Below are positions 8,026 through 35,368 of a DNA stretch of 35,368 nt, one piece after another. A program made the position numbers and the translations under genes. The notes below the pieces were generated by a model. It was not told the DNA's origin. It searched no databases and saw only the letters and a program-made list of their open reading frames with translations. The stretch's first letter is position 1. Each line of letters opens with the position of its first letter. Source of the stretch: a virus (lineage: Duplodnaviria > Heunggongvirae > Uroviricota > Caudoviricetes); the IMG/VR virus record IMGVR_UViG_2740892269_000014, one strand, 5' to 3'.

Positions 8026-8569
8026 GCATCATTGGAAAGTGGAAAAACAACCCGAGTGGTACGTGAAAGCTGTCAGAAAAACTATCGCGGCATTGCCTGG
8101 GGGTTACGCTGAAGCTGCTGACTGGCTGGATGTAACAGAGAACGCTTTATTCAACCGCCTTCGTGCAGATGGCGATCAGATTTTCCCGCTGGGATGGGCA
8201 ATGGTTTTACAGCGTGCTGGTGGCACTCACTTCATTGCTGACGCTGTGGCGCAGTCTGCAAATGGCGTCTTTGTGTCTCTTCCTGACGTCGAGGATGTGG
8301 ACAACGCCGATATCAACCAACGCCTGCTGGAAGTCATTGAACAGATCGGCAGTTATTCAAAACAGATTCGTTCAGCAATTGAAGACGGTGTAGTGGAACC
8401 GCATGAGAAGACAGCAATTAATGATGAATTGTATCTGTCAATTTCGAAGCTCCAGGAGCATGCGGCACTGGTCTACAAAATTTTCTGCGCTCCAGAAAAG
8501 AGTGACGCCCGCGAGTGTGCAGCTCCGGGCGTCGTGGCGTTTTGTGTCTGTGGAGAAACTAACGCATGA
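8018..8569 (+). CDS. CII-like / YdaT-family regulatory protein (putative)
   Basis: 183-aa ORF immediately after the cro-like gene with an 8-nt overlap; position and size fit CII functional analogues; identity is from memory. Confidence 0.4.
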   Translation: MGKHHWKVEKQPEWYVKAVRKTIAALPGGYAEAADWLDVTENALFNRLRADGDQIFPLGWAMVLQRAGGTHFIADAVAQSANGVFVSLPDVEDVDNADINQRLLEVIEQIGSYSKQIRSAIEDGVVEPHEKTAINDELYLSISKLQEHAALVYKIFCAPEKSDARECAAPGVVAFCVCGETNA

Positions 8570-8714
8570 ACAGTTTAACGGCAAATAACCGTTTGTCGCA
8601 ACAGCTGGTGGTCAGTGTCGCTGCACACCTGTTGTTACGGCATGAATGCAGATTACCAAATCACCTGGCTGTAAGTAACCACAGAGAACTTTACCTGACT
8701 GTGGGGGGCGAGTT

Positions 8715-8894
8715 GTGCAGGAACTTAACCGCTGGTTTCGTGACGGAAGAGGACTTTATGTTCATGTTATTCGTTGGGAGCCAGAAACACAGCGCGTTAT
8801 CTATCTTCGCAAAGACTACCCGCATGAGTGCTTTAGTCCTTTGTGGAAATTCAGGCGTGATTTTGTTGAGTGTGAAGGACCACCAGCACATTGA
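8715..8894 (+). CDS. possible small protein (59 aa, GTG start)
   Basis: Frame-0 ORF reading VQELNRWFRDGRGLYVHVIRWEPETQRVIYLRKDYPHECF...; G-rich stretch upstream; below the ORF-track cutoff; uncertain. Confidence 0.25.
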   Translation: MQELNRWFRDGRGLYVHVIRWEPETQRVIYLRKDYPHECFSPLWKFRRDFVECEGPPAH

Positions 8895-9168
8895 TTCTGC
8901 CATTCCGGGACGTTACACTGTTCAGGCACCTTATAAAGCGGGTGCCGGGATTGGCGTCCTGGAATTGCATACGGCGACAATTGGCGCGTTAGCGTCTTTT
9001 TTGTTGCTACAACTCAGCTATACCCAAATTATGGTGGGCTGGGTGGGGGCACCGAAAGGTGCGCCGGTTTCCGTATGCGCCGGTTACGCCAACCCTGCTC
9101 AGTTCACCACCAGCGAAATTGGCGTTTCCGGTGGTGGAAGTTATCCATTGCATACGGAGGCTGCCATC

Positions 9169-9714
9169 ATGGCTACGATCCCTGCCTTAGTTCAACCTGA
9201 ACTTTGCATTATTGCAGACAAAGTTGTTACTTCTTCTCTGGCTGTTGCTAGTTATTTCGGCAAACAACACAAAAACGTCATTCAAAAAATTGCGTCTCTT
9301 GAATGCTCTGCCGAATTTACTGAGCTGAATTTCCAGCTCAGTGAGTACATCGACGCATCAGGCCGCAAACTACCTTGCTATCAAATAACCCGCGACGGCT
9401 TTGCGTTTCTTGCTATGGGTTTCACGGGTAAACGTGCTGCCCAGTTCAAAGAGGCATACATCAATGCCTTTAACCAGATGGAGAAACAGCTTTCAAAGCC
9501 CGCTGTACCGAGCGACGTTGCACATAACGCCAGCGTTCTCTGTTCCTACATTTCATCAATTCATCAGGTCTGGCTGCAGCAGCTTTATCCTATGTTGGCA
9601 AAAGCCGAATCTCCGCTGGCTGTTAGCTTATATGACTATATTAATGATGCTTCGGCGCTGGCCTGCCTCATAAATTTGTCGCTGAACCCTTCAGAGGTAA
9701 GGGGGCGCAAATGA
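9169..9714 (+). CDS. Rha-family phage regulatory protein
   Basis: Start at MATIPALVQ with GGAGG RBS (9156-9160); Rha-like motif VVTSSLAVASYFGKQHKNVIQKI. The upstream part of ORF 8566..9714 is judged non-coding. Confidence 0.6.
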   Translation: MATIPALVQPELCIIADKVVTSSLAVASYFGKQHKNVIQKIASLECSAEFTELNFQLSEYIDASGRKLPCYQITRDGFAFLAMGFTGKRAAQFKEAYINAFNQMEKQLSKPAVPSDVAHNASVLCSYISSIHQVWLQQLYPMLAKAESPLAVSLYDYINDASALACLINLSLNPSEVRGRK

Positions 9715-9935
9715 TCCGGAATATTTTCAAACGTTTTACCAATCAGACTTTCCGTTGTCCTCGTCCGGGTCAGTGGTACACCACGCCTGCAGGGCATGTT
9801 CTACGTGTTAGCCTGGTTGACCGTGAATGTCAGAAGGTGATTTGTGAACCGCTGGGCCGTAATTACCGCGTCAGTATGCCGCTTATAGCCTTTCGCTCCG
9901 GAAAAAACATGAAGCATCTCGGAGGTGCAGCATGA
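9711..9935 (+). CDS. hypothetical small protein
   Basis: 74-aa ORF with ATGA overlaps at both ends. Confidence 0.4.
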   Translation: MIRNIFKRFTNQTFRCPRPGQWYTTPAGHVLRVSLVDRECQKVICEPLGRNYRVSMPLIAFRSGKNMKHLGGAA

Positions 9936-10750
9936 GTATGGAGCTGATGGTTAAAGCGATGAAAATTCGAGTGGGTAATCCATTGCGAAAACTGGTTCTG
10001 ATCAAGCTGGCTGATAATGCCAGCGATCAGGGTGAGTGCTGGCCCAGCTACCAGCATATTGCTGACCAGTGCGAGATTAGCAAACGTTCTGTGATGAATC
10101 ATATTGCGGCCCTCTGTGAGTCCGGGCTGGTAAAAAAAGTCACCCGGAAAGGTGAAAAAGGTAACTCAAGTAATATCTATCTTCTTCATCTTGATGGTGC
10201 AGGAGATTCACTAGGGGGTAGTGCAAATAATTCACTATCTGGTGCAGCAAATTCACCAGGTAGTGCAGGAGTTGCACCAGGGGGTAGTGCAGGAGATTCA
10301 CCCAGAACCAGTCACTCTTTTGAACCAGTCAAAGAACCAGTCAATGAACCAATAGCTGTTGGTGCATCAGTTGATGAGTCCGTGCGAGTTCGTTCAAACC
10401 GACCGGAATACTCTCCGGAGTTTGAGCAGGCATGGCTGGCATATCCCAAACGTGCTGGTGGCAATTCAAAATCTGCAGCCTTCAAAGCCTGGAAAGCCCG
10501 TTTGAATGAGGGAGTAAACCCCGAAACCATGCTGGAAGGTGTGAAACGCTACGCGGGCTGGGTATCTGCGATGGGTAACAGCGGCACACAATTTGTGAAA
10601 CAGGCTGTCACGTTCTTTGGTCCGGATCGTCATTTCGAAGAATCCTGGGAAGTTCCTGCGGTATCTGCAGCCAGACGTGAGGACCCGTACTTCAAAGCCA
10701 GTTACGACAACGTGGACTACAGCCAGATCCCGGCAGGATTCAGGGGGTGA
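9932..10750 (+). CDS. replication initiation protein (N-terminal winged HTH, C-terminal DnaT-like region) with internal origin repeats
   Basis: N-terminal motif LIKLADNASDQGECWPSYQHIADQCEISKRSVMNHIAAL; a low-complexity G/S/A linker is encoded by the iteron array; C-terminal motif AWLAYPKRAGGNSKSAAFKAWKARL. Confidence 0.55.
   Translation: MSMELMVKAMKIRVGNPLRKLVLIKLADNASDQGECWPSYQHIADQCEISKRSVMNHIAALCESGLVKKVTRKGEKGNSSNIYLLHLDGAGDSLGGSANNSLSGAANSPGSAGVAPGGSAGDSPRTSHSFEPVKEPVNEPIAVGASVDESVRVRSNRPEYSPEFEQAWLAYPKRAGGNSKSAAFKAWKARLNEGVNPETMLEGVKRYAGWVSAMGNSGTQFVKQAVTFFGPDRHFEESWEVPAVSAARREDPYFKASYDNVDYSQIPAGFRG
10196..10352 (+). repeat. candidate replication origin: five iterons plus three GAACCAGTCA repeats
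   Basis: Five about 19-bp direct repeats, GGT(A)GTGCAGGAGATTCAC-like, begin at 10196, 10217, 10241, 10259, 10283; GAACCAGTCA at 10305, 10322, 10334. Confidence 0.5.
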
Positions 10751-10752
10751 TC

Positions 10753-11241
10753 ATGAGTCTTTTGAATGAAGTTCAGAAATTCATTGAAGCCCATCCGGGG
10801 TGTACTTCCGGAGACATTGCGGATGCTTTTGCAGGTTACTCACGGCAGCGCGTTCTGCAGTCAGCAAGCAAGTTACGTCAGAGTGGGCGTGTGGCTCACC
10901 GTTGTGAAGGAGATACACGCAGACATTTCCCACGCCTGACTGAGAGAGCGCAGGAGCCGGAACCACAACCAGTTCGTGAAACCAAACCTGTGCGCAATTT
11001 CTATGTCGGCACTAACGATCCCCGGGTGATTTTGTGCCTGACCCGCCAGGCTGAAGAGCTGGAGTCCAGGGGGTTATACCGTCGTGCTGCAACGGTGTGG
11101 ATGGCGGCATTCCGAGAAAGCCACTCCCAGCCAGAACGAAACAATTTTCTGGCACGTCGTGAGCGGTGCTTACGGAAAAGCAGCAAGCGCGCTGCATCGG
11201 GTGAAGAGTGGTATCTGTCAGGGAATTACGTGGGGGCTTAA
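10753..11241 (+). CDS. PerC-like transcriptional regulator (putative)
   Basis: 163-aa ORF; C-terminal LESRGLYRRAATVWMAAF resembles the PerC-family motif; ATGA-type coupling upstream. Confidence 0.4.
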   Translation: MSLLNEVQKFIEAHPGCTSGDIADAFAGYSRQRVLQSASKLRQSGRVAHRCEGDTRRHFPRLTERAQEPEPQPVRETKPVRNFYVGTNDPRVILCLTRQAEELESRGLYRRAATVWMAAFRESHSQPERNNFLARRERCLRKSSKRAASGEEWYLSGNYVGA

Positions 11242-11894
11242 TGAGTAATAAATATTGCCGGGCGCTGGTGGAACTGCGGAACAAACCAGCCCATGAACTG
11301 AAGGAAGTGGGCGATCAGTGGCGCACGCCGGACAACATTTTCTGGGGAATTAACACCCTGTTTGGCCCGTTTGTTCTGGATCTGTTCACCGACGGTGATA
11401 ACGCCAAATGTACCGCGTATTACACGGCGGAAGACAACGCGCTGGCGCATGACTGGTCAGAACGTCTTGCGGAGCTTAAAGGTGCTGCCTTTGGTAATCC
11501 CCCATACAGCCGCGCCAGTCAGCATGAGGGGCAATACATCACCGGCATGCGTTACATCATGAAACATGCCAGTGCCATGCGTGATAAAGGCGGGCGCTAT
11601 GTTTTCCTGATCAAAGCTGCCACCAGCGAAGTGTGGTGGCCGGAAGATGCAGATCATATTGCTTTTATTCGCGGGCGTATTGGTTTTGAACTGCCTGCCT
11701 GGTTTATCCCGAAAGACGAGAAGCAGGTGCCGACAGGCGCTTTCTTCGCTGGTGCTATTGCTGTTTTCGACAAGACCTGGAAGGGACCGGCAATCAGCTA
11801 CATCGGGCGCGATGAACTTGAGGCATGTGGTGAGGCGTTTCTGGCGCAGGTTCGCCAGCAGGCGGAAAAACTGGTCAGGGAGATGGCGGCATGA
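11241..11894 (+). CDS. phage Dam-type DNA N6-adenine methyltransferase
   Basis: Catalytic NPPY motif (AAFGNPPYS); TAATG overlap with the upstream gene. Confidence 0.7.
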   Translation: MSNKYCRALVELRNKPAHELKEVGDQWRTPDNIFWGINTLFGPFVLDLFTDGDNAKCTAYYTAEDNALAHDWSERLAELKGAAFGNPPYSRASQHEGQYITGMRYIMKHASAMRDKGGRYVFLIKAATSEVWWPEDADHIAFIRGRIGFELPAWFIPKDEKQVPTGAFFAGAIAVFDKTWKGPAISYIGRDELEACGEAFLAQVRQQAEKLVREMAA

Positions 11895-12217
11895 CGACGT
11901 TAACTCAATGCCAGCAGCAGGTGCTGGATATGCTGATTTCTTACCAGAAAGAACGTGGCTTCCCGCCAACCAATCAGGAGGTGGCAACCATGCTGGGATA
12001 CCGTTCAGTGAATGCAGCGGTGGAGCATCTTCGCGCACTGGAGAAAAAAGGCGTCATCACGATAAAGCGTGGCGTGGCCCGGGGGATAACGCTTCATACT
12101 GCGATGAAGGACGACGACAGCGAGGCGGTCGGGATTATCCGCTCACTGCTTGCCGGTGAGGAAAACGCCAGGCTGCGTGCAACCCACTGGTTACATGAGA
12201 GGGGCCTGAAAGTATGA
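11891..12217 (+). CDS. LexA N-terminal DNA-binding-domain-like protein lacking the S24 peptidase domain
   Basis: 108-aa ORF; motif QEVATMLGYRSVNAAVEHLRALEKKGVI matches the LexA winged-helix domain; ATGA overlaps on both sides. Confidence 0.55.
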   Translation: MTTLTQCQQQVLDMLISYQKERGFPPTNQEVATMLGYRSVNAAVEHLRALEKKGVITIKRGVARGITLHTAMKDDDSEAVGIIRSLLAGEENARLRATHWLHERGLKV

Positions 12218-12630
12218 AGCTGATCTTGCCTTTCCCGCCCAGCGTGAACACGTACTGGCGACACCCCAACAAAGGGGCGTTTGCAGGTAAGAGCCTGATA
12301 AGCGCGGCGGGGCGCAAATTCCAGAGCGCGGCGTGTGCAGCAATAGTTGAGCAGTTACGTCGTCTGCCAAAACCAACGTCGGCACCTGCTTCAGTGGAGA
12401 TCGTGTTGTTTCCTCCGGATAACCGGATCCGCGATCTGGACAACTATAACAAGGCGCTGTTTGACGCCCTGACCCACGCGGGTGTGTGGGAAGACGACAG
12501 TCAGGTGAAAAGAATGCTGGTGGAGTGGGGACCGGTTATGCCGGAAGGGAAGGTCGAGATCACTATCAGTAAGTACGAGAAAACGGCGGGTGCAGCCGCC
12601 AGATCAAGAGGAGAAACGAAGTATGAATAA
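12214..12630 (+). CDS. rusA: RusA-family Holliday junction resolvase
   Basis: 138-aa ORF with RusA-like motifs (LPFPPSVNTYWRH; RDLDNYNKALFDALTHAGVWEDDSQV). Confidence 0.8.
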   Translation: MKLILPFPPSVNTYWRHPNKGAFAGKSLISAAGRKFQSAACAAIVEQLRRLPKPTSAPASVEIVLFPPDNRIRDLDNYNKALFDALTHAGVWEDDSQVKRMLVEWGPVMPEGKVEITISKYEKTAGAAARSRGETKYE

Positions 12631-13432
12631 TCTGATGGTCATTGATGGTATTGAAGTTCGTCGTGATGCTTATGGGCGTTACAGTCTGAACGATCTGCAT
12701 CGCGCAGCAGTAGCATCTGGTGCAAATGCCAGAACCAAGGAGCCAGGAAAGTTTCTTTCCAGCCAACAAACTGTTGAGCTTGTTCATGAATTGACCAACA
12801 CCCAGAATTTGGGTGTTGACCCGGTGAGTGTGATTCATGGGGGAAATGAACGGGGAACGTATGTCTGCAAGGAACTGGTGTATGCCTATGCAATGTGGAT
12901 CAGCCCGTCATTCCATCTGAAGGTGATCCGTACTTTCGACATGGTAACCAGCGCACCGGAAAAATTATCCGGACAGGCTGCTGACAAGATGCAGGCTGGT
13001 GTGATTCTGCTGGACTTTATGCGCCGGGAATTAAACCTGTCTAACTCTTCAGTGCTTGGTGCCTGTCAGAAACTCCAGGAGGCTGTTGGCTTACCGAATC
13101 TGGCACCGCGCTATGCCATTGATGCTCCTGCTGACGCGCCTGATGGCTCAAGTCGCCCCACGCTGTCGCTGAGTGCACTGCTGAAACAGTATGGTATCCG
13201 CCTGACGGCTAATCAGGCATATCACCAGATGGTGAAGCTAGGGATCGTTGAACAACGCGAACGATACAGCCGTACCGCGATTAACAACATCAAAAAATTC
13301 TGGTCGCTGACGGCGAAAGGCTGCATGTTCGGCAAGAACATCACCAGTCCCGCAAATCCGCGCGAGACGCAGCCGCATTTCTTCGAATCCCGATTCCCTG
13401 AGCTGTTAAAGTTGCTCGATACCGTTCATTGA
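12623..13432 (+). CDS. KilA-N domain protein
   Basis: Start at MNNLMVIDGIEVRRDAYGRYSLNDLHRAA (KilA-N-like) with GGAG RBS; overlaps the RusA stop. Confidence 0.55.
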   Translation: MNNLMVIDGIEVRRDAYGRYSLNDLHRAAVASGANARTKEPGKFLSSQQTVELVHELTNTQNLGVDPVSVIHGGNERGTYVCKELVYAYAMWISPSFHLKVIRTFDMVTSAPEKLSGQAADKMQAGVILLDFMRRELNLSNSSVLGACQKLQEAVGLPNLAPRYAIDAPADAPDGSSRPTLSLSALLKQYGIRLTANQAYHQMVKLGIVEQRERYSRTAINNIKKFWSLTAKGCMFGKNITSPANPRETQPHFFESRFPELLKLLDTVH

Positions 13433-13433
13433 G

Positions 13434-14429
13434 GTGACCGTGAGAGCACTACTGACCCCTGAAATTGCCCCGCGTATGGGGATCGTATTGTTCAGGCCAG
13501 GTTCAGAGCTGATGCCCCTGTTTATGCAGGGGCGTGTCCTGCTGGAGCCTGAGCCGGAACGTTATTCATCTTTCGCCAGTGGTGCCGTTCCGGCGGCATC
13601 ACAACCGCTGGCGGATGATCCTGCCGTTCGGGCCGTGTTCCGCAATGAGGCAGTGATCCGTCGTGCTGGTGGCGTGGAATGTCTTGAAAGCTGGTTACTT
13701 CGTGAAAAAGGCTGCCAGTGGCCTCATTCCGACTGGCACAGCGAGAACATGACAACAATGCGACACGCGCCGGGCGCAATCCGTCTGTGCTGGCACTGCG
13801 ATAACCAGCTGCGCGATCAGTTCACGGAACGGCTGGAATCAATGGCAACGGATAACTGTGCCCGCTGGGTGTTGTCTGTTGTGCGTCGGGATCTCGGTTT
13901 TGATGATAGTCACGTTGTGACAATGCCGGAACTGTGCTGGTGGCTGATTCGGAATGACCTGGCGGATGCCTTACCGGAAAGTGCAGCCCGTAAGGCACTG
14001 AGATTACCGAAGCCTGTTGTGCCGTCTGTCACCCGGGAAAGTGACCTTGTGCCTTCGGTTCCTGCCACCAGCATCATCCAGGATAAGGCGAAAAAGGTGC
14101 TGGCGCTGAAAGTGGATCCGGAGTCGCCGGAGTCTTTTATGTTACGCCCAAAACGTCGCCGCTGGGTTAATGAAAAGTACACGCGCTGGGTTAAGACACA
14201 GCCGTGTGCATGTTGTGGAAAGCCCGCTGATGATCCCCACCACCTGATAGGTCACGGTCAGGGTGGAATGGGAACAAAAGCGCATGACCTTTTTGTGTTG
14301 CCTTTGTGCAGAAAGCATCACGACGAGCTGCATGCGGATACCGTGGCATTTGAAGAGAAGTATGGCTCCCAGCTGGAGCTGATATTTCGTTTTATCGATC
14401 GTGCGCTGGCAATTGGCGTGCTGGCCTGA
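13434..14429 (+). CDS. DUF968 protein (Cys/His-rich, HNH-like C-terminus)
   Basis: C-terminal motif [43 protein letters not shown]; GTG start (13434 or 13440). Confidence 0.6.
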
Positions 14430-14446
14430 TTTTGTGGAGAAAGTTG

Positions 14447-14812
14447 ATGCGTGATATTCAAATGGTTCTTGAACGTTGGGGGGCATGGGTGGCAAATAAT
14501 CACGAGGATGTCACTTGGTCGTCTATTGCTGCAGGATTTAAAGGACTAATCCCTTCAAAAGTAAAATCCCGCCCGCAATGTTGTGACGATGACGCGATGA
14601 TCATTTGTGGATGCATGGCTCGCCTGAAAAAGAACAACAGCGATTTGCACGATTTATTAGTGGATTATTATGTAGGTGGTATGACGTTTATGGCGCTTGC
14701 CCGTAAACATGGGCGTTCTGATTGCTGGGTTGGGCGTTTATTGCAAAAGGCTGAAGGTGTAGTTGATGGCATGTTAATGATGTTAGAAATTGAGCTAGAG
14801 ATGGATCGTTAG
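14447..14812 (+). CDS. Q: late-gene antiterminator Q-like protein
   Basis: Start [22 protein letters not shown] with GGAG RBS; Cys-rich motif [18 protein letters not shown] typical of Q-family antiterminators; sits immediately upstream of the late region. Confidence 0.6.
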
Positions 14813-14854
14813 AAGACCTCTTATTGAGAGGGTAATTGAATCAGTTTAATGTGT

Positions 14855-14885
14855 GGGGAGTCGATTTATTCTCCCCATTTTATTT
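14855..14885 (+). terminator. hairpin plus T-rich tract downstream of Q
   Basis: ggggag-N10-ctcccc stem followed by ATTTTATTT. Confidence 0.4.
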
Positions 14886-14896
14886 AATTAATTTAC

Positions 14897-15343
14897 TTAA
14901 GGTTTTAATTCATCAAGACGTTGTTGGATAGTGTTTTTGCTTGCGTTGTCTGTTATAGCCATTTGTTGTACTTGCCCCATTGCCATTTGAGTTTCCATCC
15001 ACATATCGGCCCACACTTTTGTATCGTTATTAACTTGAGCGATAGTAAATCTGACTTTTGATACCGGGGTTGTTGAATAGGCATTGCCGATTAACATTTG
15101 TCCAAAAACAGCAGACCCGCCTTCCAGTTCTTTACCACATATAACACTGCTGTTATCCGCGTTGTAAATTATCAACCCTCTACTATTGCAGTAATTCACA
15201 AGGGCATCTTTGACTTTATCTTTTGTCGTATTTTGATAAACCCCCTCAGGTTTTCCTGATTGAGTTTTCTTTATCAATGGTACGGAAGAAGTACAACCTG
15301 AAATGATAGTTGCGCTAAGTAATAGTACAGTCATTTTATTCAT
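14897..15343 (-). CDS. lipoprotein (moron), unknown function
   Basis: 148-aa ORF with a signal peptide and lipobox (LLLSATIISGC); AT-rich; oriented antisense to the flanking phage operons. Confidence 0.6.
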   Translation of the reverse strand: MNKMTVLLLSATIISGCTSSVPLIKKTQSGKPEGVYQNTTKDKVKDALVNYCNSRGLIIYNADNSSVICGKELEGGSAVFGQMLIGNAYSTTPVSKVRFTIAQVNNDTKVWADMWMETQMAMGQVQQMAITDNASKNTIQQRLDELKP

Positions 15344-15408
15344 GTTTCTTATCCATTGTTAAGGGCATACCTACACAATTATTTTTATTGGAGATGAATA
15401 ATCAACCG

Positions 15409-15492
15409 TTTACAATCGTAAAAAATCAAATATGCTGTTAAGAGTGGTTACTTCGCCACACAACTTAAACCCGCCGCTGAGCGGTTTTTTTG
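15409..15492 (+). promoter_or_regulatory. candidate late promoter with a short terminated leader (pR'/tR'-like)
   Basis: -35 TTTACA (15409-15414), 16-nt spacer, -10 TATGCT (15431-15436); weak hairpin plus T7 tract at 15468-15491. Confidence 0.3.
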
Positions 15493-15613
15493 TACCTGTA
15501 AACTTGGTGCAGTACAGTAAACACGCTGGTGGTCGTGAATACTGACTTTTTATCTTGCTGGCTTTTTAGACAAGAGTTATTGGTATGTCATGTTAACCAG
15601 AAGGGAAAAAGAC

Positions 15614-15696
15614 ATGCTAAAACAGCAAGATATGACAGAAACCGCCGCCGCAGTCCTTCATTTCTTACCTGCTGACAAGTGGGTAACGCCACGCAT
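15614..15696 (+). CDS. hypothetical late protein, 5' fragment truncated by an N run
   Basis: ATG at 15614 with AAGGG RBS; the ORF (MLKQQDMTETAAAVLHFLPADKWVTPR) runs into the N block. Confidence 0.3.
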
Positions 15697-15963
15697 NNNN
15701 NNNNNNNNNNNNNNNNNNNNNNNNNNNNNNNNNNNNNNNNNNNNNNNNNNNNNNNNNNNNNNNNNNNNNNNNNNNNNNNNNNNNNNNNNNNNNNNNNNNN
15801 NNNNNNNNNNNNNNNNNNNNNNNNNNNNNNNNNNNNNNNNNNNNNNNNNNNNNNNNNNNNNNNNNNNNNNNNNNNNNNNNNNNNNNNNNNNNNNNNNNNN
15901 NNNNNNNNNNNNNNNNNNNNNNNNNNNNNNNNNNNNNNNNNNNNNNNNNNNNNNNNNNNNNNN
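15697..15963. other. N run (assembly gap or masked sequence), 267 nt
   Basis: Contiguous n characters. Confidence 1.
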
Positions 15964-15989
15964 CCTACCAGAGTTACGCTTACTGATCC

Positions 15990-17042
15990 ATGAAAAATAC
16001 TGTAAAAATAAACAGTGTTGATTTAATCAACGCTGATTGCCTGCATTTTATTCAGTCCCTGCCTGATGATTCCATTGACCTGATTGTTACCGATCCGCCT
16101 TACTTCAAGGTGAAACCCAACGGTTGGGACAATCAGTGGAAAGGGGACGAAGATTACCTTAAGTGGCTGGACCACTGTCTGGCCCAGTTCTGGCGGGTGT
16201 TAAAACCTGCCGGAAGCCTTTACCTGTTCTGTGGGCATCGTCTGGCATCTGATATTGAGATCATGATGCGTGAACGTTTCAACGTGCTTAACCATATCAT
16301 CTGGGCGAAGCCGTCCGGACGTTGGAATGGGTGTAATAAAGAAAGTCTGCGCGCATATTTTCCTGCCACAGAGCGCGTTCTGTTTGCTGAACATTACCAG
16401 GGGCCATATCGCGGCAAAAGTGACGGCTATGCGGCAAAAGAAAGGGAACTCAAACAGCACATAATGGCACCGCTGATATCGTATTTCAGGGATGCTCGTG
16501 CCGAACTGGGTATAACGGCAAAACAAATTGCCGAAGCCACAGGTAAGAAAAATATGGTTTCCCACTGGTTTGGTGCCAGTCAGTGGCAGTTGCCGAATGA
16601 GGCTGACTATCGGAAGTTACAGGCACTGTTTTCCCGTATAGCGGCAGAGAAGTTTCAGGAACAACAACTGGAACAACCACACCACCAGCTGGTGGCATCT
16701 TATGATTCACTGAATCGCAAATATTCTGAATTGCTGGATGAGTTTAAATCTCTCCGGCGCTATTTCTCCGTATCAGTCTCCGTGCCTTATACCGATGTCT
16801 GGATGCATAAACCCGTTCAGTTCTACCCGGGTAAACATCCGTGTGAGAAACCTGCGGATATGCTCCGGCAAATAATCAATGCCAGTAGTCGACCTGGTGA
16901 TCTGGTTGCTGATTTTTTTATGGGATCCGGTTCCACAATAAAAGCAGCAATGGCGCTGGGGCGTCGGGCCTTAGGTGTTGAGCTTGAGTCAGAGCGGTTT
17001 AACCAGACAGTGAAAGAGATAAACGAGCTGGTGGGGAAATAA
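15990..17042 (+). CDS. orphan DNA methyltransferase (N6-adenine/N4-cytosine class, beta architecture)
   Basis: N-terminal DPPY catalytic motif (IVTDPPYF) and C-terminal AdoMet-binding motif (FMGSGST); no adjacent restriction endonuclease. Confidence 0.7.
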   Translation: MKNTVKINSVDLINADCLHFIQSLPDDSIDLIVTDPPYFKVKPNGWDNQWKGDEDYLKWLDHCLAQFWRVLKPAGSLYLFCGHRLASDIEIMMRERFNVLNHIIWAKPSGRWNGCNKESLRAYFPATERVLFAEHYQGPYRGKSDGYAAKERELKQHIMAPLISYFRDARAELGITAKQIAEATGKKNMVSHWFGASQWQLPNEADYRKLQALFSRIAAEKFQEQQLEQPHHQLVASYDSLNRKYSELLDEFKSLRRYFSVSVSVPYTDVWMHKPVQFYPGKHPCEKPADMLRQIINASSRPGDLVADFFMGSGSTIKAAMALGRRALGVELESERFNQTVKEINELVGK

Positions 17043-17046
17043 TCTG

Positions 17047-17073
17047 GTGGCCACGTAGGTGGCCTTTTTATTT
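17047..17073 (+). terminator. intrinsic terminator between the methyltransferase and the holin
   Basis: ggccac-gtag-gtggcc hairpin followed by TTTTTATTT; duplicated at 18003-18029. Confidence 0.5.
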
Positions 17074-17108
17074 CCATTACACAGCACCCGCATCTGCGAG
17101 GTGGGGTT

Positions 17109-17324
17109 ATGAAATCCATGGATAAGTTAACAACGGGTGTCGCCTATGGCACCTCAGCAGGTAGTGCCGGGTACTGGTTTTTACAGTTGCTCGATAAAGT
17201 CACGCCCTCACAGTGGGCGGCAATAGGTGTGCTGGGTAGTCTGGTATTTGGCTTGCTGACGTATCTGACAAACCTTTATTTCAAGATTAAAGAAGATAAG
17301 CGTAAGGCTGCGAGAGGTGAATAA
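17109..17324 (+). CDS. class II holin, phage 21 S-type pinholin with dual-start motif (copy 1)
   Basis: 71 aa, MKSMDKL... with Met1 and Met4 starts; closely matches the phage 21 S holin as recalled; ATGA overlap with the endolysin. Confidence 0.8.
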
Positions 17325-17461
17325 TGTCGCCATCATTACGCAAGGCTGTTGCTGCTGCTATTGGTGGTGGGGCTGTTGCCATAGCGTCTGTGCTCATCAC
17401 TGGTCCGAGTGGTGACGATGGCCTGGAAGGTGTCAGCTACATACCATACAAAGATATCGTT
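17324..17461 (+). CDS. SAR endolysin, 5' fragment (copy 1, truncated by N run)
   Basis: Identical to the first 138 nt of the endolysin gene at 18280. Confidence 0.6.
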
Positions 17462-17727
17462 NNNNNNNNNNNNNNNNNNNNNNNNNNNNNNNNNNNNNNN
17501 NNNNNNNNNNNNNNNNNNNNNNNNNNNNNNNNNNNNNNNNNNNNNNNNNNNNNNNNNNNNNNNNNNNNNNNNNNNNNNNNNNNNNNNNNNNNNNNNNNNN
17601 NNNNNNNNNNNNNNNNNNNNNNNNNNNNNNNNNNNNNNNNNNNNNNNNNNNNNNNNNNNNNNNNNNNNNNNNNNNNNNNNNNNNNNNNNNNNNNNNNNNN
17701 NNNNNNNNNNNNNNNNNNNNNNNNNNN
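17462..17727. other. N run (assembly gap), 266 nt
   Basis: Contiguous n characters flanked by duplicated sequence. Confidence 1.
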
Positions 17728-18417
17728 ATCAGTCTCCGTGCCTTATACCGATGTCTGGATGCATAAACCCGTTCAGTTCTACCCGGGTAAACATCCGTGT
17801 GAGAAACCTGCGGATATGCTCCGGCAAATAATCAATGCCAGTAGTCGACCTGGTGATCTGGTTGCTGATTTTTTTATGGGATCCGGTTCCACAATAAAAG
17901 CAGCAATGGCGCTGGGGCGTCGGGCCTTAGGTGTTGAGCTTGAGTCAGAGCGGTTTAACCAGACAGTGAAAGAGATAAACGAGCTGGTGGGGAAATAATC
18001 TGGTGGCCACGTAGGTGGCCTTTTTATTTCCATTACACAGCACCCGCATCTGCGAGGTGGGGTTATGAAATCCATGGATAAGTTAACAACGGGTGTCGCC
18101 TATGGCACCTCAGCAGGTAGTGCCGGGTACTGGTTTTTACAGTTGCTCGATAAAGTCACGCCCTCACAGTGGGCGGCAATAGGTGTGCTGGGTAGTCTGG
18201 TATTTGGCTTGCTGACGTATCTGACAAACCTTTATTTCAAGATTAAAGAAGATAAGCGTAAGGCTGCGAGAGGTGAATAATGTCGCCATCATTACGCAAG
18301 GCTGTTGCTGCTGCTATTGGTGGTGGGGCTGTTGCCATAGCGTCTGTGCTCATCACTGGTCCGAGTGGTGACGATGGCCTGGAAGGTGTCAGCTACATAC
18401 CATACAAAGATATCGTT
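17728..18417 (+). repeat. exact 690-bp duplicate of 16772-17461 (methyltransferase 3' end, terminator, holin, endolysin 5' end)
   Basis: Feature starts are offset by exactly 956 bp (17109 vs 18065; 17324 vs 18280), and the bases just before the gap match those at 18408-18417. Confidence 0.9.
18065..18280 (+). CDS. class II holin, phage 21 S-type pinholin (copy 2)
   Basis: Same sequence as 17109-17324. Confidence 0.8.
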
Positions 18418-18777
18418 GGCGTATGGACTGTATGTCACGGACACACCGGAAAAGACATCATGCTAGGTAAAACGTATACCGAAGCAGAATGCAAAGCCCT
18501 CCAGAATAAAGACCTTGCCACGGTCGCCAGACAAATTAACCCGTACATCAAAGTCGATATACCGGAAACAACGCGCGGCGCTCTTTACTCGTTCGTCTAC
18601 AACGTGGGTGCTGGCAATTTCAGAACATCGACGCTTCTTCGCAAAATAAACCAGGGCGATATCAAAGGCGCATGTGACCAGCTACGTCGCTGGACATACG
18701 CTGGCGGTAAGCAATGGAAAGGCCTGATGACTCGTCGTGAGATTGAGCGTGAAGTCTGTTTGTGGGGGCAACAATGA
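18280..18777 (+). CDS. SAR (signal-anchor-release) endolysin, lysozyme family
   Basis: N-terminal Gly/Ala-rich weak transmembrane segment ([20 protein letters not shown]) followed by a lysozyme-like domain; 165 aa. Confidence 0.8.
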
Positions 18778-19241
18778 GCAGAGTAACCGCGATTATCTCC
18801 GCTCTGGTTATCTGCATCATCGTCTGCCTGTCGTGGGCGGTCAATCATTACCGTGATAACGCCATCGCCTACAAAGAACAGCGTGATAAAAAAGTCAGTG
18901 AGCTGAAGCAGGCGACCGCCACCATCGCTGACATGCAGCAGCGTCAGCGTGATGTTGCTGCGATCGATGCAAAATACACGAAGGAGTTAGCCGATGCGAA
19001 AACTGAAAATGAAACTCTGCACGCTGATGTTGCCGCTGGTCGTAAGCGCCTGCGGGTCAATGCCAGTTGCTCCGCAGCCGTGCGTGAAGCCACCGGACCC
19101 ACCAGCATGGATAATGCAACCAGCCCCCGACTGGCAGACACCGCTGAACGGGATTATTTCACCCTCAGAGAACGGTTGATGACGATGCAGAAGCAACTGG
19201 AAGGGGCGCAGGAATATATCCGCACCCAGCGCATTAAGTAG
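18774..19241 (+). CDS. Rz-like inner-membrane spanin
   Basis: N-terminal transmembrane segment ([20 protein letters not shown]) and coiled-coil periplasmic region; ATGA overlap with the endolysin. Confidence 0.7.
18994..19179 (+). CDS. Rz1-like outer-membrane lipoprotein spanin, embedded in Rz in the +1 frame
   Basis: Lipobox LVVSAC and Pro-rich mature region, fully nested inside the Rz reading frame. Confidence 0.6.
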
Positions 19242-24408: not shown

Positions 24409-26392
24409 CCGCAGTACACCGACGACCAGTCCGAAGAATAATTCCTGGTTCAGGATGCAGGCTGGTCACCAGAGTGACGCGGATATTTATATTTATGACG
24501 AGATTGGTTTCTGGGGTGTTACAGCGAAGCAGTTTATCAGTGATCTGAATGCACTGGGCGATATCACCCACATTAATCTCCATATCAATTCACCGGGTGG
24601 CGATGTCTTTGAAGGCATCGCCATTTTTAATGCGCTGAAAACACATGGTGCGTCCATTACCGTTTATGTCGACGGTGTGGCGGCATCAATGGCGTCGGTC
24701 ATTGCGATGGTGGGAAACCCGGTCATTATGCCGGAAANNNNNNNNNNNNNNNNNNNNNNNNNNNNNNNNNNNNNNNNNNNNNNNNNNNNNNNNNNNNNNN
24801 NNNNNNNNNNNNNNNNNNNNNNNNNNNNNNNNNNNNNNNNNNNNNNNNNNNNNNNNNNNNNNNNNNNNNNNNNNNNNNNNNNNNNNNNNNNNNNNNNNNN
24901 NNNNNNNNNNNNNNNNNNNNNNNNNNNNNNNNNNNNNNNNNNNNNNNNNNNNNNNNNNNNNNNNNNNNNNAAACGTACAGAGGAATTTAAAAAGATGCCG
25001 GAATCCATTCGAAACATGATTACTCCGCCACGCAACAGTGCTCCACGCGTACAGGATAATGAACCTGCAGCTTCCCGGACGCCAGTGCAGGCAGCAGCAC
25101 CCGTGGTGGATGAAAACAGTATCCGTGCGCAGGTACTGGCAGAGCAAAAAGCGCGTGTAAACGGTATTAATGATCTGTTTGCCATGTTTGGCGGGCGTTA
25201 TCAGACGCTGCAGGCTCAGTGTCTTGCCGATCCTGAATGTTCGCTGGAGCAGGCCCGCGAAAAGCTGTTGAACGAGATGGGGCGCGAGTCCACGCCATCC
25301 AATAAAAATACCCCGGCTCATATTTATGCCGGTAACGGTAATTTTGTGGGGGACGGGATCCGCCAGGCGCTGATGGCGCGTGCCGGATTTGAAAAAACCG
25401 AACGTGATAATGTCTACAACGGGATGACCCTGCGTGAATATGCCCGTATGTCACTGACTGAACGGGGTATTGGGGTTTCCAGTTATAACCCGATGCAGAT
25501 GGTCGGTGCGGCGTTCACACACAGTACGTCTGACTTCGGTAATATTCTGCTGGATGTTGCGAACAAAGCCATTCTGCAGGGCTGGGAAGATGCCCCTGAA
25601 ACCTATGAACAGTGGACGCGGAAAGGTCAGTTGTCTGATTTTAAAATTGCCCATCGTGTGGGTATGGGGGGCTTCAGTGCTCTGCGTCAGGTGCGTGAAG
25701 GGGCGGAATATAAATACGTCACCACCGGAGATAAACAGGCCACTATTGCACTGGCGACCTATGGCGAGCTGTTCAGTATCACCCGTCAGGCCATTATCAA
25801 TGATGATCTGAATATGCTGACCGATGTCCCGATGAAACTGGGCCGTGCGGCGAAATCCACCATTGCCGATCTGGTTTATGCCATTCTGACGTCTAACCCG
25901 AAAATCTCCACAGATAATGTAAGTCTGTTCGATAAAGCGAAACATGCAAACGTACTGGAGAGCGCTGCAATGGACGTGGCATCGCTGGATAAAGCCCGCC
26001 AGTTGATGCGCGTTCAGAAAGAGGGTGAGCGTCATCTGAATATTCGTCCTGCGTTCGTACTGGTACCGACGGCGATGGAGTCTGTTGCTAACCAGGTCAT
26101 TCGCTCCTCAAGTGTCAAGGGGGCTGACATTAACGCCGGTATTATTAACCCGGTGAAAGATTTTGCGACCGTTATTGCAGAGCCTCGTCTTGATGATAAC
26201 AGCCAGACCACCTTCTACCTGGCTGCGTCCAAAGGCTCCGATACGATTGAAGTGGCTTATCTCAACGGTGTGGATACGCCATATATTGATCAGATGGAGG
26301 GCTTCAGTGTGGATGGCGTGACAACGAAAGTGCGTATTGACGCCGGTGTCGCGCCAGTTGATCACCGCGGTCTGGTGAAATGTACGGCGTAA
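24386..26392 (+). CDS. tripartite capsid precursor (ClpP-like prohead protease, scaffold, major capsid protein), interrupted by an N run
   Basis: GTG start at 24386 with AAGGAGG RBS (24374-24380); ClpP-like N-terminal domain (HINLHINSPGGDVFEGIAIFNALK...ASMASVIAM); capsid-sized C-terminal domain; frame continuity across the N block is not meaningful. Confidence 0.6.
   Translation: MPQRNDSSRSTPTTSPKNNSWFRMQAGHQSDADIYIYDEIGFWGVTAKQFISDLNALGDITHINLHINSPGGDVFEGIAIFNALKTHGASITVYVDGVAASMASVIAMVGNPVIMPEXXXXXXXXXXXXXXXXXXXXXXXXXXXXXXXXXXXXXXXXXXXXXXXXXXXXXXXXXXXXXXXXXXXXXXXXXXXXXXKRTEEFKKMPESIRNMITPPRNSAPRVQDNEPAASRTPVQAAAPVVDENSIRAQVLAEQKARVNGINDLFAMFGGRYQTLQAQCLADPECSLEQAREKLLNEMGRESTPSNKNTPAHIYAGNGNFVGDGIRQALMARAGFEKTERDNVYNGMTLREYARMSLTERGIGVSSYNPMQMVGAAFTHSTSDFGNILLDVANKAILQGWEDAPETYEQWTRKGQLSDFKIAHRVGMGGFSALRQVREGAEYKYVTTGDKQATIALATYGELFSITRQAIINDDLNMLTDVPMKLGRAAKSTIADLVYAILTSNPKISTDNVSLFDKAKHANVLESAAMDVASLDKARQLMRVQKEGERHLNIRPAFVLVPTAMESVANQVIRSSSVKGADINAGIINPVKDFATVIAEPRLDDNSQTTFYLAASKGSDTIEVAYLNGVDTPYIDQMEGFSVDGVTTKVRIDAGVAPVDHRGLVKCTA
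24738..24970. other. N run (gap or masked sequence), 233 nt, inside the capsid gene
   Basis: Contiguous n characters. Confidence 1.
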
Positions 26393-32638: not shown

Positions 32639-33084
32639 TGGAGACGTTTCACTNNNNNNNNNNNNNNNNNNNNNNNNNNNNNNNNNNNNNNNNNNNNNNN
32701 NNNNNNNNNNNNNNNNNNNNNNNNNNNNNNNNNNNNNNNNNNNNNNNNNNNNNNNNNNNNNNNNNNNNNNNNNNNNNNNNNNNNNNNNNNNNNNNNNNNN
32801 NNNNNNNNNNNNNNNNNNNNNNNNNNNNNNNNNNNNNNNNNNNNNNNNNNNNNNNNNNNNNNNNNNNNNNNNNNNNNNNNNNNNNNNNNNNNNNNNNNNN
32901 NNNNNNNNNNCATTTACGACAAACCACCCTGATCGGTTTCCAGTCATAAGGTGGCGTCCGCGCATTTCAGTGGACGCCACCTTATGACTGGAAACCGATC
33001 AGGGTGGTTTGTCGTAAATGGTCGGCAAGCGTGGGGGCGCTGTGGGTAACCATAACGGCAGATTTTGAACAGGTCGTGGCATAG
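32639..33084 (+). CDS. M: minor tail protein M-like, interrupted by an N run and a palindromic artefact
   Basis: ATG immediately after the H stop (METF...); the 3' part (from 32959) reads RAFQWTPPYDWKPIRVVCRKWS...FEQVVA*, matching the lambda gpM C-terminus. Confidence 0.6.
32654..32910. other. N run (assembly gap), 257 nt
   Basis: Contiguous n characters. Confidence 1.
32911..33019. repeat. perfect 49-bp inverted repeat (palindrome) with 11-nt spacer next to the N run; probable fold-back artefact
   Basis: Arm 32911-32959 is the exact reverse complement of arm 32971-33019; the right arm is genuine M coding sequence, while the left arm puts a stop (TAA 32947-32949) in the M frame. Confidence 0.85.
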
Positions 33085-33093
33085 GAGGCTCTG

Positions 33094-33792
33094 GTGCAGG
33101 ATATTCCACAGGAAACACATCATGAGACGACACTCCTCACTCAGTCAGCCCAGGTGGTGCTCTGGGAAATCGATCTGACAGAGGTCGGTGGTGAACGTTA
33201 TTTTTTCTGTAATGAGCAGAACGAAAAAGGTGAGCCGGTTACCTGGCAGGGGCGGCAGTATCAGGCATACCCCATTCAGGGGACGGGATTTGAACTGAAC
33301 GGCAAGGGCAGTGCTGCCCGTCCGACACTGACGGTTTCTAACCTGCACGGCATGGTCACGGGGATGGCGGAAGACCTGCAGAGTCTGGTCGGCGGAACGG
33401 TGGTCAGGCGTAAGGTTTACGCCCGTTTTCTGGATGCGGTGAACTTCGTCAACGGAAACAGCGACGCCGATCCGGAGCAGGAGGTGATCAGCCGCTGGCG
33501 CATAGAGCAGTGCAGCGAACTGAGTGCGGTCAGTGCCTCCTTTGTGTTGTCCACACCGACGGAAACGGATGGCGCTGTTTTTCCGGGACGTATCATGCTG
33601 GCCAACACCTGCACCTGGACCTATCGCGGTGATGAGTGCGGTTATGATGGCCCGGCGGTCGCGGATGAATATGACCAGCCAACGTCCGATATCACGAAGG
33701 ATAAGTGCAGCAAATGCCTGAGTGGTTGCAAGTTCCGCAATAACGTCGGCAACTTTGGCGGCTTCCTTTCCATTAACAAACTTTCGCAGTAA
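33094..33792 (+). CDS. L: minor tail protein L
   Basis: GTG start with AGGAGG RBS; 232 aa, near-identical to lambda gpL over most of its length as recalled (VVLWEIDLTEVGGERYFFCNEQNEKGEPVTWQGRQYQ...). Confidence 0.9.
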   Translation: MQDIPQETHHETTLLTQSAQVVLWEIDLTEVGGERYFFCNEQNEKGEPVTWQGRQYQAYPIQGTGFELNGKGSAARPTLTVSNLHGMVTGMAEDLQSLVGGTVVRRKVYARFLDAVNFVNGNSDADPEQEVISRWRIEQCSELSAVSASFVLSTPTETDGAVFPGRIMLANTCTWTYRGDECGYDGPAVADEYDQPTSDITKDKCSKCLSGCKFRNNVGNFGGFLSINKLSQ

Positions 33793-33797
33793 ATCCC

Positions 33798-34541
33798 ATG
33801 ACAGAGACAGAATCAGCGATTCTGGCGCACGCCCGGCGATGTGCGCCAGCGGAGTCGTGCGGCTTCGTGGTGAGAACACCGGAGGGGGAAAGATATTTTC
33901 CCTGCGTGAATATTTCCGGTGAGCCGGAGGAGTATTTCCGGATGGCTCCGGAGGACTGGCTGCAGGCAGAGATGCAGGGTGAGATTGTGGCGCTGGTTCA
34001 CAGCCACCCCGGTGGTCTGCCCTGGCTGAGTGAGGCCGACCGGCGGCTGCAGGTGCAGAGTGATTTGCCGTGGTGGCTGGTCTGCCGGGGGACGATTCAT
34101 AAGTTCCGCTGTGTGCCGCATCTCACCGGGCGGCGCTTTGAGCACGGGGTGACGGACTGTTACACGCTGTTCCGGGATGCTTATCATCTGGCGGGGATTG
34201 AGATGCCGGATTTTCATCGCGAGGATGACTGGTGGCGTCACGGTCAGAATCTCTATCTGGATAATCTGGAGGCCACAGGGTTGTATCAGGTGCCGTTGTC
34301 ATCAGCACAACCGGGCGATGTGCTGCTGTGCTGTTTTGGTTCATCGGTGCCGAATCATGCCGCCATTTACTGTGGTGATGGCGAGCTGCTGCACCATATT
34401 CCTGAACAACTGAGCAAACGAGAGAGGTATACCGACAAATGGCAGCGACGCACACACTCCCTCTGGCGTCACCGGGCATGGCGCGCATCTGCCTTTACGG
34501 GGATTTACAACGATTTGGTCGCCGCATCGACCTTCGTGTGA
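33798..34541 (+). CDS. K: tail assembly protein K (JAMM/NlpC-P60-like)
   Basis: 247 aa; HSHPGG JAMM-like motif and C-terminal Cys/His peptidase motifs; overlaps I as in lambda. Confidence 0.8.
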   Translation: MTETESAILAHARRCAPAESCGFVVRTPEGERYFPCVNISGEPEEYFRMAPEDWLQAEMQGEIVALVHSHPGGLPWLSEADRRLQVQSDLPWWLVCRGTIHKFRCVPHLTGRRFEHGVTDCYTLFRDAYHLAGIEMPDFHREDDWWRHGQNLYLDNLEATGLYQVPLSSAQPGDVLLCCFGSSVPNHAAIYCGDGELLHHIPEQLSKRERYTDKWQRRTHSLWRHRAWRASAFTGIYNDLVAASTFV

Positions 34542-35080
34542 AAACGGGGGCTGAAGCCATCCGGGCGCTGGCCACACAGCTCCCGGCGTTTCGTCAGAAA
34601 CTGAGCGACGGCTGGTATCAGGTACGGATTGCCGGGCGTGATACAGGTGAAACGGAATTATCAGCCCGTCTTAATGAACCGCTGGCAAATGGTGCTGTGA
34701 TCCATATCGTGCCGCGTCTGGCAGGAGCCAAAAGTGGCGGTGTGTTTCAGGCTGTGCTGGGGGCGGCTGTTATGGCGGTTGCTATATGGATGCCGGGGGT
34801 AGGAATTATGGCGAGTAATCTGCTGTTTTCTCTCGGTGCCAGTATGACGCTTGGCGGTGTTGCACAGATGCTGGCCCCTAAACCCAAAACCCCCAGCACA
34901 CAGACAACGGATAACGGCAAACAGAACACCTATTTTTCTTCACTGGATAATATGGTTGCCCAGGGCAATGTTCTGCCCGTTCTGTACGGTGAAATGCGCG
35001 TGGGATCACGTGTGGTATCTCAGGAGATCAGCACAGCAGATGAAGGTGATGGTGGTCAGGTTGTGGTGATTGGTCGCTGA
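34439..35080 (+). CDS. I: tail assembly protein I
   Basis: 213 aa; N-terminal about 70 residues and C-terminal about 60 residues essentially identical to lambda gpI as recalled. Confidence 0.9.
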   Translation: MAATHTLPLASPGMARICLYGDLQRFGRRIDLRVKTGAEAIRALATQLPAFRQKLSDGWYQVRIAGRDTGETELSARLNEPLANGAVIHIVPRLAGAKSGGVFQAVLGAAVMAVAIWMPGVGIMASNLLFSLGASMTLGGVAQMLAPKPKTPSTQTTDNGKQNTYFSSLDNMVAQGNVLPVLYGEMRVGSRVVSQEISTADEGDGGQVVVIGR

Positions 35081-35098
35081 TGAAAAACGTTTTATGTG

Positions 35099-35120
35099 AA
35101 ACCGCCTCCGGGCGGTTTTA
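35099..35120 (+). terminator. conserved hairpin between I and J
   Basis: aaaccgcc-tccg-ggcggttt stem followed by a short T tract; the same 60-nt I-J spacing as in lambda. Confidence 0.4.
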
Positions 35121-35140
35121 TCGTTTATGGAGCATGACGA

Positions 35141-35368
35141 ATGGGTAAAGGCAGCAGTAAGGGGCATACCCCGCGCGAAGCGAAGGACAACCTGAAGTCC
35201 ACGCAGCTGCTGAGTGTGATCGATGCCATCAGCGAAGGGCCGGTTGAAGGTCCGGTGGATGGATTAAAAAGCGTGCTGCTGAACAGTACGCCGGTGCTGG
35301 ACAGTGAGGGGAATACCAATATATCCGGCGTCACGGTGGTGTTCCGGGCCGGTGAGCAGGAGCAGTCA
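35141..35368 (+). CDS. J: tail tip/host-specificity protein J, 5' fragment truncated by the window end
   Basis: MGKGSSKGHTPREAKDNLKSTQLLSVIDAISEGP... matches the lambda gpJ N-terminus as recalled. Confidence 0.9.
   Translation, partial: MGKGSSKGHTPREAKDNLKSTQLLSVIDAISEGPVEGPVDGLKSVLLNSTPVLDSEGNTNISGVTVVFRAGEQEQS

Follow-up and report, generated by a model that had tools for sequence, protein, structure and literature searches.

The subject of this study is an open reading frame (ORF) in a 35,368-nucleotide (nt) stretch of viral DNA (Caudoviricetes; IMG/VR record IMGVR_UViG_2740892269_000014), called the window below. The ORF occupies positions 15990 to 17042 on the plus strand, encodes 350 amino acids (aa), and lies between a Q antiterminator gene and a holin gene. 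Judged by its sequence, it is an orphan, prophage-borne gene for a beta-class N6-adenine methyltransferase of the M.EcoGII family. We consider it likely that this identity is combined with a place in a Q-dependent late transcription unit. An M.EcoGII-family gene in the usual late-operon position of lambdoid phages is an already known kind of locus.

Identity and specificity of the enzyme

The order of the conserved motifs is that of the beta class, with DPPY (motif IV) at residue 35 in the N-terminal part and FMGSGST (motif I, FxGxG) at residue 310 in the C-terminal part. The protein matched the Pfam family N6_N4_Mtase (2e-42) and is identical to RefSeq WP_000799656.1. These motifs and the Pfam matches of all three genes confirm a preliminary description of this DNA, which had placed a 350-aa beta-class methyltransferase between the Q gene and the holin. 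Its statement that the gene is an orphan also held. No neighbor matched a restriction enzyme model in PADLOC, and none is annotated across the prophage of Escherichia coli APEC 102026, which is 99.99 to 100% identical to the window over the first ~32.6 kilobases (kb). An adjacent cognate endonuclease, which characterizes type II restriction-modification, was not found at the locus.

Comparison with M.EcoGII showed 81% identity over the full length (281 of 349 residues, 2 gaps), and the similarity spans the target-recognition region too (residues 160 to 237 in M.EcoGII). Identity was 90.4% to the reconstructed ancestor Anc291 and 70.6% to Anc284/SUPREM. The M.EcoGII and ancestor sequences used here were machine-read from the supplement of PMC11551740 and carry a few reading errors. 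M.EcoGII and M.EcoGI, which are encoded by prophages of E. coli O104:H4 C227-11, share with the window enzyme the beta class, the N-terminal DPPY, the C-terminal FxGxG, a length of 349 to 350 aa, the prophage location, and the lack of a restriction partner. The gene neighborhood is also the same in close relatives. The window ortholog differs from M.EcoGII in ~19% of its residues, and its activity is predicted.

M.EcoGII, found in an E. coli O104:H4 prophage, methylates adenine in any context (PMC5778455). Non-site-specific activity was also shown experimentally for Anc291 and Anc284, and the closest site-specific enzyme is only 27% identical to M.EcoGII (PMC11551740). Because the window enzyme lies well inside a clade with demonstrated nonspecific activity, it should methylate adenine in any sequence context. 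The preliminary description implied instead an orphan methyltransferase with sequence specificity, as in Dam or YhdJ, and with a motif yet to be found. The beta-class architecture with its central recognition domain would fit such an enzyme, and the best NCBIfam match was indeed a YhdJ-type model. However, this match reached 110 bits against a cut-off of 292, and every other NCBIfam match was also far below its cut-off. Together with the similarity to M.EcoGII across the whole protein, target-recognition region included, and to the nonspecific ancestor Anc291 (PMC11551740), this makes a sequence-specific enzyme quite improbable. The preliminary description had also named the absence of a phage-specific methylation motif as a refuting result. 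That test is unsuitable. It would wrongly reject a correct idea, because no recognition motif is to be expected of this enzyme.

Proposed late promoter, leader, and expression of the cassette

The Q gene (14447 to 14812, plus strand) encodes 121 aa from its ATG and belongs to a recognized antiterminator family (Pfam Phage_antitermQ, PF06530, 2e-51). It lies upstream of the methyltransferase gene, as expected of a late unit, and a DUF968/HNH gene is also located 5' of the methyltransferase ORF. The window Q is of the QuuD type of prophage DLP12 and is 85% identical to QuuD of E. coli K-12. Its match to the solved structure of Q21 is distant (E = 7e-9).

A candidate late promoter, PR', was recognized at 15409 to 15436 on the plus strand. 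It consists of the -35 hexamer TTTACA (15409 to 15414), a 16-nt spacer, and the -10 hexamer TATGCT (15431 to 15436), and scores 9/12. The DLP12 counterpart, TTTACG-16-TATGCT, stands in the same register. The palindrome TTTACAATCGTAAA at 15409 to 15422 overlaps the candidate promoter, and we propose it as the Q-binding element. A predicted late leader follows at 15437 to 15491. It comprises an initial transcribed region with the -10-like sequence AAGAGT (15440 to 15445), a GTGG/CCAC hairpin (15444 to 15459), and a tR'-like terminator with a stem at 15470 to 15484 and seven T residues at 15485 to 15491. We take AAGAGT to resemble the -10-like pause element AACGAT of lambda.

The leader is conserved. 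The 55 nt starting at 15437 (GTTAAGAGTGGTTACTTCGCCACACAACTTAAACCCGCCGCTGAGCGGTTTTTTT) differ by a few bases at most among prophages of the E. coli group with a PF06530-type Q. Those in the terminator are mostly within its loop, and the terminator is stronger (GCGGG) in relatives. TAnnnT at positions -6 to -1 from the leader was kept in all seven aligned loci (7/7), and AAGAGT was invariant in those of the E. coli group. The element accompanies this Q family across many genera. In K-12, the DLP12 element lies ~175 nt 5' of essD without a methyltransferase gene, and in strain APEC20/16 it stands immediately 5' of a lambda-type holin. Thus, the leader belongs to the Q module and not to the methyltransferase cassette, since it is present at both loci without the latter. 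The preliminary description had suggested a late promoter with a terminated short leader at 15409 to 15492, arranged as in lambda, and the comparison with DLP12 and other prophages supports it.

In contrast to the shared leader, the palindrome at -30 to -12 changes with Q. All four recognized Q-type groups (4/4) differ in it, and within a clade it is constant across genera. The palindromes of these Q types are TTTACGTACGTAAA, GCGTACGC, TGCGG-N-CCGCA, and TTCGTTACGAA. The type of the window and DLP12, TTTACG-TA-CGTAAA, was also found in Trabulsiella, Xenorhabdus, and Photorhabdus, with Q proteins that share 66 to 81% identity with the window Q. The Q type of phage 569R4 is associated with GCGTACGC, beside which TGCGGNCCGCA is another palindrome type. 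The Q type of phage cdtI and Stx2a phages is associated with TGCGG-N-CCGCA, and one Salmonella locus has TTCGT-T-ACGAA. Such a pattern is expected of a Q-binding element, promoter, pause site, and tR', and it supports this reading of the sequence. Late promoters served by PF06530-type Q proteins may follow a readable code, in which a clade-specific palindrome is joined to a shared leader.

A different placement of the late promoter was also considered. It could lie immediately 3' of the Q gene (14813 to 14852), in which case 15409 to 15491 would be part of a mobile cassette or of the control region of the reverse-oriented gene described below. In lambda, PR' directly follows Q, and a good intrinsic-terminator-like hairpin is present at 14853 to 14886 on the plus strand (GGGGAG...CTCCCC followed by TTTTATTT; -13 kcal/mol, z = -3.1). 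This hairpin lies between the convergent Q gene and reverse gene. However, the interval before it offers only 40 nt without acceptable hexamers, and in phage cdtI a terminator abuts the Q stop codon. DLP12 and APEC20/16 have the element at 15437 to 15491 but lack the cassette. Where no reverse gene is inserted, as in Trabulsiella, Xenorhabdus, and one Stx2a phage, this element directly follows Q, and the palindrome directly follows Q in these three and in Photorhabdus. Together with the correspondence between palindrome and Q type, these observations make a promoter next to Q highly improbable.

The reverse gene itself (14897 to 15343, minus strand) is inserted between Q and its candidate late promoter. 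It encodes a putative lipoprotein of 148 aa (phrog_3152, 1e-104), whose N terminus, MNKMTVLLLSATIISGC, reads as a signal peptide with a lipobox. A promoter-like site of its own lies at 15362 to 15333 on the minus strand (TTAACA-18-TAAAAT, 10/12). Unrelated reverse-oriented cargo is often found between PF06530-type Q genes and their late promoters (loci L003, L006, L009, and L010, and DLP12). It is the putative lipoprotein gene in the window, nmpC in DLP12, and other gene pairs elsewhere, and it parts Q from its target site by 0.5 to 2.9 kb.

Downstream of the leader, the cassette is composed of a small ORF for a winged-helix-like protein, a structured leader RNA, the methyltransferase gene, and an intrinsic terminator. 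The latter (17049 to 17073, plus strand) is formed by GGCCAC-GTAG-GTGGCC followed by TTTTTATTT, and the annotations of phages SfV and Ayreon list it as a terminator. The preliminary description had called it strong and had seen the gene as bracketed by it and the late promoter with its leader. The hairpin and T-run are present, but the strength is only moderate (-12.3 kcal/mol, z = -2.5). Likewise, the elements on both sides exist, but the bracketing is not direct, because the small ORF and the ~150-nt structured leader intervene. The first lysis gene, a holin gene of the phage 21 S type (17109 to 17324, plus strand; Pfam Phage_holin_2_1, 2e-35), follows the terminator, and lysozyme and Rz genes lie 3' of it.

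The same cassette is carried by phages cdtI (gp55/gp56), SfV (orf47/orf48), mEp460, and Ayreon. The block from the leader terminator to the 3' terminator shows 96 to 99% DNA identity in the matched parts. These phages differ from the window in their Q types (~250 aa in SfV and Ayreon) and in their holins. SfV differs further in that the first cassette terminator lies ~107 nt past Q, without a reverse gene between them. Related loci were collected from one genome per species, and their neighborhoods were searched with a handful of reference proteins. The 80 loci obtained (56 to 93% protein identity) represent many species of Enterobacterales, in the genera Escherichia, Salmonella, Citrobacter, Klebsiella, Enterobacter, Kluyvera, Buttiauxella, Erwinia, Mixta, Photorhabdus, Xenorhabdus, Proteus, Morganella, and Gilliamella. 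At 59 of 72 loci, Q or DUF968 was encoded upstream on the same strand, and lysis genes followed downstream, likewise on the same strand, at 59/72. No match to a reference protein was found on the opposite strand of these loci.

Close relatives of M.EcoGII (93% identity) are found in Stx2a-converting phages, where the order is Q, small ORF, methyltransferase, transfer RNA (tRNA) genes, stx2A, and stx2B. Because stx expression is PR'- and Q-dependent (PMC6266700, PMC7547250), any gene that lies between PR' and stx belongs to the late transcript. Stx2c phages appear to carry the cassette just 5' of the toxin ORFs, as judged by ORF sizes in an unannotated record. In a Stx-like prophage of E. coli O145:H28 RM13516 (L009, 3276 to 3389), only the last ~38 methyltransferase codons remain between the late leader and tRNA genes, the cassette having evidently been deleted.

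This arrangement can be compared with known systems. As in lambda PR'-qut-tR' and phage 21, a Q gene is combined with a short terminated leader followed by late genes. The candidate promoter with its overlapping putative Q-binding site, and the -10-like sequence within the first predicted transcribed bases, would be further parallels. In contrast to both, the window has a reverse gene between Q and the promoter, and its leader is only ~50 nt long. Q21 is of the same Pfam family as the window Q but is only distantly related to it (E = 7e-9). Its Q-binding element is described as a direct repeat of two 8-base-pair (bp) subsites (bioRxiv 10.1101/651190), whereas the putative element here is a palindrome. 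Another parallel is StxS, the terminated PR' leader RNA of Stx phages, where a constitutive late promoter gives a short terminated transcript in lysogens (PMC7547250). There, the Q family and the leader sequence are different, and the leader RNA of the window is predicted. Lysis genes of DLP12 are reported to be under Q control, according to a statement cited in PMC7918800.

Members of this family are described in the literature as silent in the lysogen. No methylation by M.EcoGII or M.EcoGI was detectable in the native lysogen (PMC5778455; reviewed in PMC12707154). Constitutive expression of M.EcoGII slows growth, and both enzymes are harmful when so expressed (PMC5778455; PMC12707154). The M.EcoGII authors proposed that the gene is switched on at prophage induction and serves to overcome restriction (PMC5778455), and the same was stated in a 2025 review (PMC12707154).

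We propose the following course of events. RNA polymerase that initiates at the late promoter in a lysogen would halt at the leader terminator, and the toxic enzyme would not be made. Upon induction, Q would bind the palindrome overlapping the promoter and modify the paused polymerase. The modified polymerase would then read past the leader terminator and through the cassette, cross the second terminator (17049 to 17073), and reach the holin, lysozyme, Rz, and structural genes. The enzyme would be made only late, so that replicating and packaged phage DNA would be heavily methylated. Such DNA would be less exposed to adenine-sensitive restriction in the next host. No promoter-like site was found between 17043 and 17108, before the holin gene. 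Lysis transcripts must therefore cross the cassette, because only 35 nt without such a site separate the terminator and the holin gene. This mode of control would explain the published silence in lysogens and would confine the toxic enzyme to the last phase. Family context, the conserved leader, and the Q-type palindrome support the position in a Q-dependent late unit that had been suggested before, and the role of the enzyme is probably the protection of progeny DNA.

The phage Mu modification function offers a functional analogy, although protein and chemistry are unrelated. The control of Mom expression is also different, being exerted by Dam/OxyR, C, and Com. Like the enzyme proposed here, Mom modifies adenine, is silent in the lysogen, is toxic if expressed, and acts late, and it broadens protection against restriction (PMC12707154).

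Transcription in the lysogen had been offered as an alternative in the preliminary description. Under it, the cassette would be a self-contained lysogenic-conversion unit with its own promoter, and the enzyme would act as an epigenetic regulator or protect the host chromosome. The cassette does have its own terminator, which is one half of what defines a classical moron, and it travels among phages that differ in their Q and holin types. The weakness of the leader terminator and a promoter-like site inside the small ORF, at chance level, also agree with this alternative. However, the other half of the moron definition, an own upstream promoter, was not found. From 15492 to the small ORF, and likewise upstream of the methyltransferase start, no promoter-like site was seen. 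The orientation always matches that of the late operon. Close relatives give no detectable methylation in the native lysogen and are toxic when made constitutively (PMC5778455). Given the published silence and the toxicity of the family, we judge transcription in the lysogen unlikely.

Several points weigh against expression from a Q-dependent late promoter by a nonspecific, protective enzyme as proposed here. The hexamers of the candidate promoter score only 9/12, and sites of this kind occur at chance level in the region (6 found, 5.5 expected). A chance-level promoter-like site also lies inside the small ORF (L001 4243 to 4270). The stem of the leader terminator is weak in the window (four G-C pairs, flanking A-U pairs, fold z = -1.6), and partial read-through in the lysogen is possible. 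In DLP12, a published RpoE-dependent start lies ~320 nt 5' of the proposed PR' element, as judged by primer positions (PMC7918800). Other promoters can therefore feed the region, and the position of this start neither supports nor refutes the proposed element. Nonspecificity is extrapolated from an enzyme that is 81% identical. Finally, the M.EcoGII-family literature considered here contains no demonstration of an anti-restriction benefit in vivo.

Small ORF and structured leader RNA

The small ORF of the cassette begins at window position 15614 on the plus strand, and its 5' part extends to 15696. The remainder is hidden under a run of N (15697 to 15963), which covers the 3' two thirds of the ORF and most of the conserved structured leader RNA. 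The ORF is complete at the reference locus L001 (4185 to 4388), where it encodes 67 aa and belongs to phrog_331, a family of unknown function (5e-26). All of its Pfam matches were below threshold and all were to winged-helix families; these consistent hits suggest a winged-helix-like product. A search of solved structures with the small-ORF profile gave only chance-level matches to FtsA. The small ORF is located 5' of the methyltransferase gene at 53 of 73 related loci.

Between the small ORF and the methyltransferase gene lies a spacer of ~150 nt (L001 4389 to 4538), which folds at -61 kcal/mol (z = -3.2). Just past the stop codon of the small ORF, the spacer starts with a variable hairpin and a short T-rich tail. 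Three helices follow, and a possible fourth one would cover the bases just 5' of the start codon. We analyzed covariation across 42 sequences from many genera. At 16 of 41 proposed pairs, both sides had changed, a value reached in none of 500 shuffles (0/500), and sliding one arm against the other gave about half of it. One pair was C-G 18 times, A-U 10 times, and U-A 5 times. For part of the spacer, an alternative pairing is conserved but shows no double changes. The structured RNA (~130 nt) is retained at loci without the small ORF.

No canonical ribosome-binding site precedes the methyltransferase start. The sequence GATC, which is invariant, stands 3 nt before the ATG, and base pairing of UGAUC with the 16S ribosomal RNA 3' end is conceivable.

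A scan of the reference Q-to-holin region against Rfam with E values up to 1 yielded no family for the structured RNA. The only match, STnc130, was on the opposite strand with 26 bits against a cut-off of 55 and was taken as chance. A 35-aa ORF annotated within the spacer in phage 569R4 was also rejected as coding. Most homologs have an in-frame TAG at codon 8, owing to a difference in loop length, and the covarying helices also speak against a coding function. The structured RNA is the sole part of the locus that we could not assign to a known category. Together with the phrog_331 protein, it could form a second layer of control, which would time or limit the translation of the methyltransferase within the late transcript. 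We hold only tentatively to the joint reading that the cassette carries such a layer of its own and that, separately, Q-type palindromes constitute a code; it is possible rather than likely.

State of the sequence and implications

The window contains four N-runs (15697 to 15963, 17462 to 17727, 24738 to 24970, and 32654 to 32910). The first has 267 N in place of 245 nt. The interval at 17462 to 18417 consists of the second run and a repeat copy, since positions 16772 to 17461 recur exactly as 17728 to 18417. This 690-nt segment comprises the last 271 nt of the methyltransferase gene, the terminator, the holin gene, and the 5' end of the lysozyme gene, and because of its repetition the window shows a further, spurious 3' end of the methyltransferase gene and two holin genes. 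The repeat was not found in the near-identical complete genome of APEC 102026, where the segment is single copy, nor in the other complete genomes inspected. Because of the single copy in the complete genome and because the N-runs differ in length from the sequence they replace, the duplication is most likely an assembly or scaffolding artifact, namely, a gapped scaffold with one unmerged overlap. A genuine 956-bp tandem duplication is improbable; it has no counterpart in the near-identical complete genome, and the junction itself is under N. The unequal lengths also rule out that the N-runs were set as deliberate, length-preserving masks. At the end with the tail genes (32950 to 35365), identity to the reference prophage falls to 94%, which marks a mosaic boundary.

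The early region contains a second adenine methyltransferase gene (11208 to 11894, plus strand; Pfam Dam, PF05869, 1e-45), which is followed by a gene with a LexA DNA-binding domain (11891 to 12217). The window is also rich in exact Chi sites (GCTGGTGG), with 18 copies where shuffling predicts 1.7. Apart from a site at 1580 and a copy in the duplicated segment, they cluster in the early-right, Q, and lysis region (window 8216 to 19106; similarly L011 9355 to 19267), and the structural genes past 19.1 kb contain none. The cassette has four on the plus strand, at 15525, under the N-run, at 16688, and at 17027. The copy under the N-run forms the 5' arm of RNA helix P1. One minus-strand site is at 16682.

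The gene itself adds little to what is known, because its family is characterized and already serves as a laboratory reagent. The value of the locus is that it would account for a published puzzle, the silence of M.EcoGII-type genes in lysogens, by their position behind a terminated, Q-dependent leader. In some Stx2a phages, M.EcoGII-type genes would share a transcript with the Shiga toxin genes. The structured leader RNA bears on how phages tolerate a toxic enzyme. The Q-type palindromes bear on the wiring of late transcription, toxin expression included, and the palindrome-leader code, if true, could predict which Q drives which prophage, Stx2a phages among them.

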